64,000 nt of DNA, taken from assembly GCA_951406725.2 (NCBI GenBank), contig OX597828.1, positions 29,698,001-29,762,000 of the forward strand. Direction: 5' to 3'. The notes under the pieces were generated by a model. The model was not told the origin of the DNA. It did no database searches and worked only from the letters and a program-made list of their open reading frames with translations. Below are positions 100-59,450 of this stretch, piece after piece. How positions within the stretch are numbered: the stretch's first letter is position 1; every line of letters starts with the position of its first letter. Source of the DNA: Octopus vulgaris (taxonomy: Eukaryota). The translations under genes and the position numbers were made by a program.

Positions 100-295
100 T
101 TAGGTACAGTTCTATATTTAAGAGATGAGGAATTATATACATTAGTTACATTATTTACATTCGACGGATATTTCTCCTCATCTTGTTTGTTGTTAACACA
201 ACATTTCGGCTGATTTACCCTCCAGTCTTCTTTAGGTGTCTTGGGGAAATTTCGAACCTGGGTTCTCATTCCTAAGGTATTTTTCGATGTTGTTG

Positions 296-328
<33 letters not shown>

Positions 329-417
329 TTATTGTTAGTGTTCAGATCAATGCTTGAAATGGAACTCGGAATCTTGGGGTTAATAGCCCGCGCTCTTAAC
401 ATCTACGCCATATGCCC
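100..417 (-). mobile_element. PLE terminal-repeat unit (tRNA-like head + (AAT)n + degenerate hammerhead), inverted copy
   Basis: Reverse-complement match to 848-1095 and same-strand match to 39645-39911. Minus strand reads gggcatatggcgtagatgttaagagcgcgggctattaaccccaagattccgagttcc, then (AAT)n, then gacac-CTAAAGA...cagcc-GAAAT-GTT-gtgtt. Confidence 0.75.
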
Positions 418-423
418 ACGAGT

Positions 424-822
424 AACACAACACTTCGCCAATATCTTCTTCGAGTAAAACCACTAATAGAAAAGAATGTGACCAAAGACTGCGTGTACTC
501 CTTCCCATGCAGCTGTGGTAGGTTATACAAAGGCTAAACATGCCGCCCCCTCAAAATAAGGGTAGACGAACATCGCAAAGCTGTGACACGAGTAGATATT
601 GATAAATCGGGTATAGCTGATCATGTATGGAAAAATGGAGATCACCTTCCCCTGTGGGATGAAGTTAAAATTATAGACGGAGAACACCACTGGAAAATAT
701 GAAAACTAAATGAAGCAGCACATATGCTAGGACTGAACAACCTCCTAAGCAGACCGAGTGGAGATATGAGCAGAATATGGGAACCGGTATTAAGGAAGGA
801 TAGAAAAATATTAGAGTTATAA
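424..822 (+). pseudogene. Penelope-like element GIY-YIG endonuclease relic
   Basis: One frame reads NTTLRQYLLRVKP...KDCVYSFPCSCGRLYKG*TCRPLKIRVDEHRK...SGIADHVW...WDEVKIID...WKI*KLNEAAHM. This fits the CVY/CxC/YxG/EH pattern of PLE GIY-YIG domains. Stops at 535 and 700. Confidence 0.88.
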
Positions 823-847
823 GCCCTGAAATTCACTCCATAATTGC

Positions 848-1095
848 CCACGGGTATATGACTTAGTGGTTAAGAACACGGGCTGAACACTAATAATAGT
901 GACCTGAACACTAATAACAAGCAGTGACCTGAACACTAATAATAATAATACCATCAAGAAATACCTTTGGTATGAGAACCCAGGTTCGAAATTTCCCCAA
1001 GACACCCGAAGAAAGCTGAGGGGTATATCAGCCGAAACGTTGTGTTAACAACAAACAAGATGAGGACAAATATATGTCGAATGTAAATAATGTAG
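848..1095 (+). mobile_element. PLE terminal-repeat unit downstream of the GIY-YIG relic, with hammerhead-like motif at 1001-1046
   Basis: Truncated tRNA-like head, then gacac-CCGAAGA-aagctgaggggtatatcagcc-GAAAC-GTT-gtgtt and an aatgtaaat tail. Confidence 0.75.
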
Positions 1096-1520
1096 TATTA
1101 AGTAGTTTAGAATTTCTTTATTTTCAAGTGGTTCTTTTTTTTTCTTCCAGCCAAAATATGAGACCACACTATGTTAGACACAAGAGTAGACATTTTTCGG
1201 GTGTTAAGTGGCTGAGAAATTATCTGTGAAAAAAGTGTAAGATGCATGTGTAGATAAGATTCTTAGTTAGAAAGGAAAAATTGCAAGAAAAAAGAACCAA
1301 GAAATAGCAGGATGAGAAACTAGACTAATACATTTGCAGGCTTTAATTTTGAGGAAAAAAAAAAAAAAAATTGACGTGTTTTATTTGTTACTGACAGAAA
1401 ATTTTTTCTGTCAATTTTAAATGGGTTTCGAACGTTTTATGTTTCAGACTGTAGCTGCTAATTTATAATTTTATTTTATTTGAGAAGATATATCTTATAT
1501 CAACTAGAGCGTGGAAGGCT

Positions 1521-1815
1521 CTTGTTATTAGTGTTCAGGTCACTGTTATTAGTGTTCAGGTCACTGTTATTAGTGTTCAGGTCACTGTTATTAGTGTTCA
1601 GGTCACTGTTATTAGTGTTCAGGTCACTGTTATTAGTGTTCAGGTCATTGTTATTAGTGTTCAGGTCACTGTTATTAGTGTTCAGGTCACTATTATTAGT
1701 GTTCAGCCCGCGTTCTTAACCACTTAGCCATATACCCGTGGGCAATTATGGATTAAATTTTAGAGCTTATAAATCTTATATTTTTCTATCCTTCCTTAAT
1801 ATCGGTTCCCATATT
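1521..1815 (-). repeat. Inverted PLE fragment with 21-bp tandem array (ttattagtgttcaggtcactg, about 8.5 copies)
   Basis: Array at about 1524-1705 explains the LLLVFRS ORF. 1705-1815 is the reverse complement of about 770-885. Confidence 0.85.
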
Positions 1816-1979
1816 CGTCATTCATAATCAGAAAAACTGTTAATTTCTCTTAGTGCAACCGTATCAGTGTCCAGCTCACAGTTAAAGCGACGAAAAAGTT
1901 CACACCCAATAATAATTGTTTGAGCAAAGCAAAGGGGATTTGTGTGTATTTGAATGGCTAATGTGCTTCTGTCAGGTAA

Positions 1980-5645: not shown

Positions 5646-6068
5646 GGCGCAGGAGTGGCTGTGTGGTAAGTAGCTTGCTAACCAACCACATGGTTCCGGG
5701 TTCAGTCCCGCTGCGTGGCATCTTGGGCAAGTGTCTTCTGCTATAGCCCCGGGCCGACCAATGCCTTGTGAGTGGATTTGGTAGACGGAAACTGAAAGAA
5801 GCCTGTCGTATATATGTATATATATATATATGTGTGTGTGTGTGTATGTGTTTGCTTGTCTCTGTTTGTTCCCCTAGCATTGCTTGACAACCGATGCTGG
5901 TGTGTTTACGTCCCCGTCACTTAGCGGTTCGGCGTAAGAGACCGATAGAATAAGTACTGGGCTTACAAAGAATAAGTCCCGGGGTCGATTTGCTCGACTA
6001 AAGGCGGTGCTCCAGCATGGCCGCAGTCAAATGACTGAAACAAGTAAAAGAGTAAAAGAGTAAAGAGT
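5646..6068 (+). mobile_element. tRNA-derived CORE-type SINE family A, full length
   Basis: A box tggctgtgtggt, B box ggttcagtccc, CORE-like cttgggcaagt, internal (TA)(TG) tract, (gtaaaaga)n tail. Near-identical copies at 27464, 60209 and 25358(-). Confidence 0.92.
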
Positions 6069-23635: not shown

Positions 23636-24166
<531 letters not shown>

Positions 24167-24734: not shown

Positions 24735-25340
<606 letters not shown>

Positions 25341-25357
25341 AACATATATATATATAT

Positions 25358-25558
25358 TACTCTTTTACTTGTTTCAGTCATTTGACTGCGGCCATGCTGA
25401 AGCACCGCCTTTAGTCGAGCACATCGACCCCAGAACTTATTCTTTGTAAGCCTAGTACTTATTCTATCGGTCTCTTTTTGCCGAACCGCTAAGTTACGGG
25501 GATGTAAACACACCAGCATCGGTTATCAAGCGATGTTGGGTGGACAAACACAGACACA

Positions 25559-25610
<52 letters not shown>

Positions 25611-25781
25611 CATATATACGACAGGCTTCTTTCAGTTTCCGTCTACCAAATCCACTCACAAGGCTTTGGTCGACCTGAGGCTATAGTAGATGACGCTTAC
25701 CCAAGGTGCCACGCAGTGGGACTGAACCCGGAACCTTGTGGTTGGTAAGCAAGCTACTTACCACACAGCCACTCCTGCGCC
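25358..25781 (-). mobile_element. SINE family A, full length
   Basis: Reverse complement of 5646-6068. Confidence 0.92.
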
Positions 25782-27463: not shown

Positions 27464-27868
27464 GGCGCAGGAGTGGCTGTGTGGTAAGTAGCTTGCTAAC
27501 CAACCACATGGTTCCGGGTTCAGTCCCACTGCGTGGCACCTTGGGCAAGTGTCTTCTACTATAGCCTCGGGCCTTGTGAGTGGATTTGGTAGACGGAAAC
27601 TGAAAGAAGCCCGTCGTATATATGTATATATATATATATGTGTGCGAGTGTGTTTGTGTGTCCGTGTTTGTCCCCCTAGCATTGCTTGACAGCCGATGCT
27701 GGTGTGTTTATGTCCCCGTCACTTAGCGGTTCGGCAAAAGAGACCGATAGAATAAGTACTGGGCTTACAAAGAATAAGTTCCGGCGTCGAGTTGCTCGAC
27801 TAAAGGCGGTGCTCCAGCATGGCCGCAGTCAACTGACTGAAACAAGTAAAAGAGTAAAAGAGTAAAGA
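27464..27868 (+). mobile_element. SINE family A, full length
   Basis: Near-identical to 5646-6068. Confidence 0.92.
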
Positions 27869-37579: not shown

Positions 37580-39330
37580 TAGGCATTGCTGTGTGGTTAA
37601 GAAAGTCGGTTTCCAACCACATGGTTTCGGGTTCAGTCCCGCTACGCGGCACCTTGACATGTATTTTACTGTAGTCCTGGAACAATCGATTCCTTGTGCA
37701 AATATGGTAGAGAAAAGCTGTCAAAACCGATCGTATACGCACCACACACCTATATATATATATATGTATATATATATATTCATATATTGGGTTATCCCAT
37801 AAATAATGCGGTTTCTTTTATACTTCTTTCTGTTTTCAAAATTAAGATAAAGAAAGTTCTTTTTTAATGTAAAACATACTCTCCATTTTCTACAATGCTC
37901 TTCATTCTATCTGGTAGACTTGAAAGATCCTTCTTCAAAAATTCACTTGTCCGTCACGAAAAGTGCTCCTCCAGTACTGTTCTGACCTCGACTACAGAAT
38001 TCATATTTTTTTTCCGGCTAAATGATTTTGAGGACTGTAGAATAAATGATAATCAGATGGTGTAATATCCGGCGAACATGGTGGGTGGGGCATCGTTTCC
38101 CATTCAAACTACTCCAGCCTTTCGAATGTCATCTTCGCTGTATGTGGTAGAGCATTATCTTGATGGAGCAACACCTTTCATCTTGAAACCAAAGACGGTC
38201 GTTTTTCGTCTTGCGCTGACTTAAACTACTGAAGCTGCTCGCAGTAGAACTCCTTTGTTATCGTTTGGTTTGGGATCAAGAAGTTCTAGGTGGACTTAAC
38301 CTTTCATATCCCACGAAACACATAACAACACCTTACGTGGATGTAGACCTTCTTTAGCCTGGGGTGCCGGTGTTTCTCCTTTCCCTACCCAGTGTGTTCG
38401 GCGATTGACATTCTTATAGAGAACCTATTTCTTGTCACCAGTCACTATTCAGTTCAAAAAACGTTCATTTGTGAGATACATTAGACACAGGAAGTTTGTG
38501 AGAAACCCATTGACCCAATTTGTTGACATTTCAGATGGTACGCAGGTGTCCATGAATGGTTGAATGACCAAATCCAAGCTTCTTTGATAGTTCCTCAACA
38601 GTTACGATAGGAGTGTGATCCACCGGGGTTTGCAGGACGTTCTTGTGGAGCTCTACAGATCTTCCAGGATGAGTCTCGTCTTCTAGGCTGTAGTTTCCAG
38701 CTCGGAATTTCTGGAAACACCGTTAACACTGGCTTACGATTATTGTCCGATCCCCATATACTGCATTAATATTCCTCGCACTTTTCCATTGCTTTGCTAC
38801 CTTTATTGAACTCATAAAGCAAAATATGCCGAATATGCTCCTTTGTCACTTTCATTAGAGCTTTGAAAAAATAACTGTTAAAATCAAACTGCACTCTTCA
38901 AAACTCACACTAAGAATAAGGACAAAGTAAAATTACTACCTGCTTTTATAGCAAGTTGATGCAGGTAGTTTATCCCATCCCCCTCCGGTGTTTAGTTGAT
39001 GCAATTGAAAAAACTGCATTATTTATGGGATGACTCAATAAATATATGCACAGACACAAATATGTCTCTGTGTCTGTGTTTGTGCATTCTATAACTTGAT
39101 AATCGGTATTAATGTGTTTAAGTTCCCGTAGTTAGATGTTCAGCAAAGGAGACACAGAATAAGTACTAGACTTCTAAATAACACAATAAAAACCCAAAAC
39201 AAAACAAATAAGCAAAAACAGAATAAAAACAACAAGAAATTCATAAAGTCCATCTTTTTTGAGAAAAACTCGCTTCAAAGTGGTTTTTCAATATGGCCGC
39301 TGTCCAGTGATTGAAACAAGCGATAAAACA
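37580..39330 (+). mobile_element. Old SINE family A copy split by a mariner insertion
   Basis: Head at 37580-37785. The 3' half (cttgataatcgg...gaataagtact...atggccgc...gaaacaag) lies at 39060-39330. Confidence 0.7.
37787..39038 (-). mobile_element. Full-length degenerate mariner (DD34D) element with TIRs and TA target-site duplication
   Basis: TIRs ttgggttatcccataaataatgcggttt and aaactgcattatttatgggatgactcaa, each flanked by TA. ATG at 38855 (MKVTKEHIRHILLYEFNKG). Motifs VTGDKK*, HPRKVLLCVSWD, HQDNALPH, SPDITPSDYHLF. Confidence 0.93.
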
Positions 39331-39644: not shown

Positions 39645-40380
<736 letters not shown>

Positions 40381-40670
40381 TTGTAGCTTAATTATTTTGA
40401 TTAAAAGCAAAGATCCAGTGCTACATATTTGGCCTTCTCAAAACATGCCTGTATTCCGATTTTAAGTCTTGCAGAGTTCATATCTTACCGAGTGAGGAAC
40501 TTACCCTTCCTGAAATATAGTAACTCGTACAGCGCAAAGTAAGAATGAAAAGTAACATGTGGTATTGTACATACGAGTTTTTATTTTTCTTGGGTTACCT
40601 AGGGAATGACAGGCAGCGGTCCTTTGGGTTTTGAAGGAGTCAACTGACGAGTGATATCCGTGTAGTTTAA

Positions 40671-41024
40671 GGCGGCGAGCTGGCAGAAACGTTAGCACGC
40701 CGGGCGAAATGCTTAGCGGTATTTCGTCTGCCGCTACGTTCTGAGTTCAAATTCCGCCGAGGTCGACTTTGCCTTTCATCCTTTCGGGGACTTAACCCGT
40801 GTGTCTGTCCTTGTTTGTCCTCTCTGTATTTAGCCCCTTGTGGGTAGTAAAGAAATAGGTATTTTGTCTGCCGTTACGTTCTGAGTTCAAATTCCGCCGA
40901 GGTCGACTTTGCCTTTCATCCTTTCGGGGTCGATGAAATAAGTACCAGTTACGCACTGGGGGTAGATTAAATTGACTATCCCCTTCCCCAAAATTTCAGG
41001 CCTTGTGTCTATGGTAGAAAAGGA
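40671..41024 (+). mobile_element. SINE family B with duplicated body
   Basis: Matches 27090-27328. The second unit starts at about 40860. Confidence 0.9.
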
Positions 41025-58939: not shown

Positions 58940-59450
58940 CTGGGGAGGGGCATTATGTCGGTAATAATAAACACACGCACTGGTTCGGTCCTTGATTGTT
59001 AGTTAATGGGTTAGTTACTCCGTTAACCAATTTATCGATCAGCCGGTTTTTTACTTGCTTTTCAAACTCATATGTTAAACACTTCGGTCAAACAGGTAAT
59101 CGTTCAAATGTTCAGAATTTTTAGTGTTATTTCTTTTTTTCTTGTCAAATAATTATTTCATTGCATTGTTGCAATCTCTTCAGTGACACGTCTCTCTACT
59201 TCGATTGTAATGAAATGGAAGTAGAGAGACGTGTCACTGAAGAGATTGCAACAATGTGATGAAATAATCATTTAATAAATAAAAAAAAAGAAGTGACAAC
59301 TCTAACAATACAGAACATTTGAACGATTAACTGTTTGGACAAAATCGATAAAATGGTTAACGGAGTAACTAACCCATTAAGTAACAATGACAATAAGGGA
59401 CCGAACCAGTGCGTGTGTTTATAATTACCGGCACAATGCCCTCCACCCCA
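58940..59450. mobile_element. Palindromic element of about 500 bp made of two divergent hammerhead-bearing units
   Basis: Arms are alignable over about 230 bp. The inner 39 bp (59164-59202 / 59218-59256) are a perfect inverted repeat. Confidence 0.85.
59143..59188 (-). ncRNA. Minimal type I hammerhead ribozyme motif
   Basis: tgtca-CTGAAGA-g-attgc-aacaat-gcaat-GAAA-T-AATT-ATT|tgaca. Stems I and II are perfect 5-bp stems and stem III is palindromic. Confidence 0.75.

Follow-up and report, generated by a model that had tools for sequence, protein, structure and literature searches.

The window analysed here, 64,000 nucleotides of Octopus vulgaris DNA (contig OX597828.1), contains five pieces of one repeat in which a tRNA-derived head precedes a hammerhead ribozyme motif. 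The locus raises the question of what such a unit is: the terminal repeat of a Penelope-like element (PLE), a self-cleaving SINE able to move alone with the help of the PLE enzyme, as an earlier note on this DNA had suggested, or an ordinary SINE that happened to insert into one PLE copy. The answer favoured here, and held to be likely, is that the head of the PLE pseudo-LTR acts as an RNA polymerase III (Pol III) promoter and that the PLE reverse transcriptase (RT)-endonuclease copies the transcripts from two sites in the tail, which would give rise to ORF-less, SINE-like copies.

The window locus and its parent element

The sequence at ~103-1094 is one insertion, made up of an inverted unit (copy A), a 5'-truncated ORF end and a direct unit (copy B), so that the earlier description of a unit directly behind a GIY-YIG relic, and again inverted before it, is borne out (Table 1). 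The relic aligns with the C-terminus of the PLE protein P0023 (54% identity, E 4e-42); Pfam searches with the ORF pieces of the window returned no match. The copy noted near 39,849 is likewise real and belongs to a second inverted pair, with copies C and D forming an ORF-less inverted insertion (39646-40374), and a fifth, partial copy (E) is added here. The nine 21-bp tandem units of copy E (1522-1706) are built from the end of the head and the start of the spacer.

No copy in the window is intact, and every hammerhead there has a core or stem defect; the core reads CUAAAGA and GAAAUGUU in copy A and CCGAAGA in copy B, which also lacks the anticodon arm and the B box. The four-part unit of the first description is a composite of these copies: all of its parts exist at the level of the family but not at the window locus. 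Its fourth part has to be redefined, since the supposed (aatgtaaat)n tail is no SINE tail: it is coding sequence from the start of the ORF, and it stops at the first of the two end points of the PLE. In other copies of the family, the frame from the start codon continues through the hammerhead and the tail into the PLE protein.

Table 1. Parts of the PLE-derived copies, in window coordinates
Feature	Position	Strand	Remark
Likely target-site duplication TAGTATTA	95-102, repeat at 1093-1100	+	Sequence reading; short and AT-rich, hence only likely
Copy A, inverted unit before ORF relic	105-417	-	
Copy A tail, post-hammerhead ORF-start sequence up to the long PLE end point	105-194	-	
Copy A minimal type I hammerhead motif	195-240	-	Mutated core
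Copy A likely family ORF start codon	267-269	-	P0023 has a homologous N-terminus
Copy A (AAT/AAC)n spacer	290-340	-	Sequence reading
Copy A tRNA-derived head	341-417	-	Starts (+1) at 417, with the A box at 400-410 and, mutated in copy A, the B box at 356-367
PLE ORF 3' end, endonuclease domain	421-822	+	5'-truncated, two premature stops
Copy B, direct unit after ORF relic	852-1094	+	
Copy B head remnant: palindromic edge plus initial 33 nt	846-884	+	Anticodon arm and B box deleted
Copy B rearranged spacer through short end at 1094	885-1094	+	
Copy B start codon	972-974	+	
Copy B hammerhead	1001-1046	+	Mutation at U4; cleavage predicted after 1041
Copy E, partial: ORF end, head deletion as in B, nine 21-bp tandem units	1522-1816	-	
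Copy C: spacer, hammerhead and long tail behind a head that starts at about +15	39646-39912	-	
Copy C hammerhead	39699-39744	-	Intact core; stem II weakened, 3/5 stem II pairs
Copy D: expanded (AAT)n and short end behind the 3' part of a head	39913-40374	+	
Copy D damaged hammerhead	40266-40308	+	Without G12

Elsewhere in the window lie members of other tRNA-derived or SINE-like repeat families, unrelated to the PLE unit (5679-5714, 23658-23699, 24740-24777, 25713-25754, 27499-27532 and 37595-37645, and likewise about 1975-2140 and 40670-40960). Two long hairpins (25243-25451 and 59142-59280) are head-to-head repeat pieces or MITE-like, with microRNA-model scores below threshold.

The repeat unit is the pseudo-LTR of an autonomous PLE, real and genome-wide, and the PLE family is old and high-copy. 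The monomer, of ~2.64 kb, runs from the head (75 nt) through an (AAT/AAC)n spacer, the start codon, the hammerhead, the tail and an ORF of ~840 codons to 29 nt that lead into the next head, with the hammerhead motif inside the first ORF codons. Walking upstream from the ORF end reached the RT motifs and the ORF N-terminus, which is continuous with the tail and body. Tallied copies give a single frame of about 840 codons, and one fragment (L221) has a Pfam match to RVT_1 (E 7e-07). Body and tail run into the ORF N-terminus after the head in L194 and in L204, a partial tandem, whilst L194 and L207 start at the head and continue into the ORF. The endonuclease shows a C-x-C..H..H pattern by eye; Pfam GIY-YIG matches the relative P0107 and neither P0023 nor the window pieces. 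No zinc-finger linker between RT and endonuclease was seen in the translations, the quick-search tree contains no named reference PLEs, and a search of the PDB gave only a weak group II intron-like RT match. The genome was searched for a sister family lacking the head, and the four top matches to P0023 all belong to the same family. Since none of 150 scored RT matches has a full-length open frame (the longest is 569 aa), the family looks extinct in this genome.

The head is a constant component of the PLE's terminal repeat and not a one-off SINE insertion. In the 2.8-Gb genome, exact matches to 24-mers number 3,033 (head), 227 (ORF-head junction) and 10,488 (body); these are lower bounds, with copies differing from the majority by a median of 5.6%, and reversed-pattern controls gave zero. 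A search with the ORF end found the head directly behind it in 25 of 30 loci (BLAST), the first head bases being visible in the remaining five, and the claim that the head belongs to the PLE terminal repeat is upheld. A search with the head found the hammerhead body no more than 1.5 kb downstream in 27 of 30 loci, an ORF end lying nearby only at the window locus. The body is downstream of the head in 77 of the first 92 of the 3,033 head matches; this sample, like the 40-copy sample used below, consists of first matches on two contigs and required an exact 24-mer. The other 15 have, by inspection, (AAT)n followed by other or unrelated sequence, seven of them carrying pieces of two shared repeats with differing start points. 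Head and hammerhead do not, then, occur mostly independently of one another, and the family core is intact.

The spacer, of 7-352 nt in 42 parsed copies, is a landing site for (AAT)n-targeting elements. Inside it lie 5'-truncated pieces of another retroelement (L117, L153, L165 and L099; 99-100% identity among three) and a second shared repeat (L111, L154 and L167). Seven other loci (L162, L163, L190, L199, L201, L207 and L217) have internal deletions in which the ORF N-terminus jumps to the head or the tail, and are candidate true non-autonomous PLEs because they retain RNA beyond the tail.

As in SINE2-type elements, the repeat begins with a tRNA-derived 5' head with A and B boxes. The A box starts 8 nt into the head; the stems are not kept, pairing having been lost in the T arm and the acceptor stem. 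Scored with a profile of 12 tRNA genes from the same genome, seven good copies reach 21.8-23.4 bits, the best reversed-sequence control (334 kb) 6.3. The tRNA-like nature claimed for the head holds against this profile. ARAGORN made no tRNA call, whether in the window, at 14 loci of the family or at 53 relative loci, and Rfam found no tRNA or hammerhead match in the whole window, four short stretches or good copies. The closest tRNA is Arg(TCT) (53/80 columns, z 7.3), followed by Arg(TCG) (z 7.0). A tRNA-Arg source is tentative, since the 12 genome tRNAs cover only seven amino-acid types.

The head as a probable promoter

Transcription from a type 2 Pol III promoter is expected to start just before +1, ahead of the A box. 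Among the 92 head matches, 12 extend into the ORF, 25 begin inside the head and 55 begin at its 5' edge. With a strict cut, 67 copies reach +4 and 40 of them end at -9..+4, where the truncation rate on the ORF side (0.0046 per nt, from the first 40 of the 227 junction loci) would predict 3.9 and the rate within the head 9.1; the gapped end-caller extends copies with a fold-back stub to -10..-19 via a palindrome, and those 15 are counted only in the looser 55. General truncation is high, because 25 of the 92 copies start inside the head. Most simply, these ends would mark where an RNA begins, shortly before the tRNA +1 and 10-13 nt upstream of the A box, and the head is probably used as an internal Pol III promoter.

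The main confounder is the head edge itself, an imperfect palindrome (GCCC-AC-GGGC) that could favour truncation or fold-back. The head might then be passive. The pile-up of 5' ends could come from the palindrome, if RT stalls there or if cDNA made on long RNA from Pol II or read-through folds back or anneals to other cDNA; a Pol II start or a cut in RNA processing at that point are further possible sources. Promoters in PLE pseudo-LTRs are reported anyway in the portion of PMC6765202 available. Such a stub is present or possible in 30 of the 55 edge copies, and one ORF-linked copy (L080) has a hairpin junction. A passive head is nevertheless unlikely, given that 25 of the 40 strict edge copies have no stub, many of them abutting unrelated flank, that the step in 5' ends is about ten times the ORF-side expectation, and that the ends fall mostly just before +1, where a type 2 start is expected; the unpaired T arm and acceptor stem count against a cut by RNase P. 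A perfect hairpin join at the head edge has 180 exact matches, compared with 227 for the ORF junction, and in 30 hairpin loci one arm is usually whole and the other a stub that jumps downstream.

The preferred account, with the head as an active promoter, could run as follows. A tRNA-Arg-like SINE or a piece of tRNA would have entered the pseudo-LTR once and then been kept. Pol III would start ~2-6 nt ahead of the tRNA +1, and RT would start at two internal sites, ~55 and ~85 nt past the GUU of the hammerhead, one for each nicked target strand. At the RNA 5' end the cDNA would fold back or anneal via the palindrome. Solo copies would mostly be dead ends, and the hammerhead would be an ordinary PLE motif that does not cut out a mobile unit.

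It is possible, though doubtful, that the whole autonomous element is a Pol III unit, a coding retrotransposon on a captured tRNA promoter, of which the metagenome locus L296 (below) may be an independent case. This reading draws on the position of the head just before the start codon and on the lack of a TTTT terminator: in the 2.6-kb monomer no TTTT site is common to at least 40% of the covering copies, and AAAA sites number 30. Synonymous shuffles would be expected to have 3.0 TTTT runs (P0 0.021), or 4.7 (P0 0.003) if Phe codons follow the element's other NNY usage, and LINE-type ORFs from a few families of the same genome have at least two in 30 of 30 cases. As proof of Pol III transcription, the absence of TTTT was rejected, since GGGG is likewise absent from the element and 5 of 34 relative loci also have no TTTT in the aligned part of the ORF; the two of those five whose pseudo-LTRs were counted, or read from one family, are T-rich there. 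The absence is at most a weak hint at transcription of the whole element by Pol III.

In three RNA-seq runs that contain the repeat there is no pile-up of read starts or ends at it. Mate directions are equal, 66-71% of reads extend into unlike flanks, and the ~2-fold depth step at the head is not above that of DNA contigs (~3-fold). The signal looks like passive transcription, in libraries of unstated strandedness and of a kind that loses short Pol III RNAs.

Tails, hammerhead and ORF-less copies

The 3' ends of 354 body arms fall into two clusters, ~55 and ~85 nt beyond GUU (143 and 158 arms). Of 70 inverted pairs, 57 have a long tail on one arm and a short tail on the other, the rest being long/long (10) or short/short (3) (P 5e-8 against 0.5), by a tail motif caller that is noisy and miscalls the window's own inverted pair. 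The partial-tandem pseudo-LTR, inverted 5' arm and one-ended tail of PLEs are thus all seen in the family (L204 and the 57 pairs). According to the text available of PMC11167929, an anole PLE protein cuts and extends both strands, and two RT start sites bound the tail; on this basis two priming events per insertion may be inferred, the long and short ends matching the two start sites found in vitro. One start site per nicked target strand would explain why inverted arms end one short and one long.

The ORF is absent from 80 of the 92 head copies. Since the long and short tails of inverted pairs give ORF-less copies the PLE signature, these were made by the PLE machinery, and the claim that the terminal repeat has moved without the ORF is supported to that extent.

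Of 71 parsed hammerhead copies, 20 match the family core, GACAC-CUGA(U/A)GA-A-stem II-GAAA-CGU-U-GUGUU, perfectly, and the perfect motif combines stems I and II of 5 bp each with one additional base behind the core and a palindromic CG at stem III. PLE minimal hammerheads are listed with these features in the part of PMC4209133 available; the pseudo-LTR holds a minimal type I hammerhead motif. At related PLE loci the core is kept, and stems I and II change on both sides together. Single-strand folding of five hammerhead copies gave a stability not above that of shuffles, which is to be expected where the motif is minimal, and in a two-copy cofold the swapped hammerhead dimer was not the best fold. 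The mobile unit is not bounded by the predicted cleavage site: only 1 of 30 early 3' ends lies at the GUU, and among 104 internal 5' starts 10 lie near it (4.5 expected), several of these being microhomology joins. As part of the account preferred here, the hammerhead is likely to be an ordinary PLE motif and not one that excises a mobile unit.

A true self-propagating SINE, transcribed by Pol III, self-cleaving and re-copied in trans by the PLE enzyme, would accord with the excess of solo over ORF-linked copies, which is about 7 to 13 fold, and with the existence of internal-deletion derivatives. The GT-loop arm is complete in about a third of the 30 hairpin loci, which could mean second-generation sources, but mismatch repair of annealed cDNA ends could give either loop orientation. 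Four variant sites carry no solo-specific variants: solo and ORF-linked copies have the same ratios (Fisher P 0.35, 0.79, 0.78 and 0.30), in a comparison that uses 40 junction-pattern loci, the first 30 ORF-end loci having been dropped because they were chosen by likeness to the window copy. At these sites there is no sign of the separate non-coding lineage with its own source genes that defines a SINE2. Because solo copies have PLE tails and inversions, and variants in common with ORF-linked ones, both are likely, as judged from four sites only, to derive from the same masters. Solo copies also stop at the tail, and the anole PLE protein required RNA up to about 55 nt past the RT start in vitro (PMC11167929, portion available); solos are likely to be mostly dead ends because they lack this post-tail RNA. 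With copy ends that ignore the cleavage site as well, the self-cleaving SINE of the earlier note, understood as a self-propagating unit, is improbable and was not sustained. The weakest alternative, insertion of an ordinary SINE into a single PLE copy at the window locus, has a negligible chance of being right and is refuted by the genome-wide junctions and head-body linkage given above, no donor SINE with the same head and another fixed body having been seen.

Known systems and relatives

The element resembles the Penelope/Poseidon PLEs, including anole Poseidon PAc, as described in the available parts of PMC11167929, PMC8557442 and PMC4209133. These have a single ORF with RT and a C-terminal endonuclease, a pseudo-LTR, a minimal type I hammerhead that overlaps the ORF start (at the ORF start in the anole PLE, PMC11167929) with an extra base between 9 and 10.1 and a palindromic 15.2-16.2, a tail of 30-40 nt at one end, inverted 5' arms and AT-rich targets. 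Unlike them, the octopus PLE has in its pseudo-LTR a tRNA-derived head with A and B boxes, an (AAT)n spacer and a sharp 5' end at the head; the same parts of these papers describe no tRNA or Pol III feature for PLEs.

A Pol III promoter derived from a small RNA is also found in the terminal repeats of the TRIMp3 elements Cassandra, Helenus and Ajax, whose origin by SINE insertion into the repeat is proposed in the text available of PMC10886601. The same text argues that the autonomous partners of TRIMp3 must use Pol II and do not share the repeat. TRIMp3 elements are non-autonomous LTR elements with PBS and PPT, unlike the octopus element, which is a PLE, is autonomous and itself shares the tRNA-headed repeat. 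That repeat overlaps the PLE ORF and has PLE tails, and the two LTRs, PBS and PPT of a TRIMp3 are not found.

The combination of a Pol III-type promoter and a type I hammerhead recalls the Schistosoma Sm-alpha repeats (PMC6765202), and non-coding, PLE-related hammerhead units moved by PLE enzymes recall the animal non-LTR retrozymes (PMC7229834; bioRxiv 10.64898/2026.07.22.740005), all as far as the available portions of these sources go. Sm-alpha and retrozymes form tandem arrays that the ribozyme cuts into monomers, whereas the octopus copies lie scattered, singly or as inverted pairs, with the head and the PLE tail sites as their limits, and, unlike for Sm-alpha and retrozymes, a coding parent with the same head is present in the genome. 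Head-to-tail tandem units with ends at the ribozyme cut, as in retrozymes, are not seen.

Octopus reportedly also harbours the tRNA-derived retroposons of Ohshima and Okada (1994). To go by title and citing passages alone, these resemble the present copies in being short and tRNA-derived; the citing papers, in the passages available, class OR1 and OR2 as CORE-SINEs and mention no link to a PLE or hammerhead.

What is new here is the fixed tRNA-derived head in the pseudo-LTR of a PLE. No such PLE turned up in the literature searches, although the family may be listed under a SINE or PLE name in Repbase, Dfam, SINEBase, bioRxiv supplements or subscription papers; the short copies are probably filed in repeat libraries as SINEs or PLE fragments. 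SINE-like elements are known to parasitise LINEs, and Pol III heads in terminal repeats are known only from non-autonomous LTR elements. In octopus it is the autonomous PLE that bears the head, and short arms in the tens of thousands stem from it. This shows one way for a SINE-like repeat to originate, namely as a by-product of the parent element. For the study of PLE insertion, the family is also a large natural data set.

Searches found 319 relatives, the closest at 60-74% identity; P0023, a full-length relative, keeps the same hammerhead-encoded N-terminal residues. Among 79 metagenome loci, the readable pseudo-LTRs have no tRNA-like head, with the exception of L296 (2759-3090). In this tandem PLE, which is intact, words resembling the A and B boxes, AATAATAAT and a hammerhead follow one another as they do in the octopus family. 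The L296 head scores a weak 7.1 bits against the tRNA profile (control 6.3). Each 2.8-kb monomer has two TTTT runs, both just after the hammerhead (shuffle mean 5.9). L296 groups apart from the octopus family in a quick tree and may be a lead for an independent, similar capture of a tRNA head in a distantly related PLE.

Strong tRNA-like matches also lie near other PLE relatives (L305:1742-1809, L328:2451-2509 and L344:2203-2257); that in L328 interrupts a pseudo-LTR that is uninterrupted in L313 and is an ordinary SINE insertion. At L232 (138-2854), seven tRNA-Cys-like genes are clustered within 3 kb.
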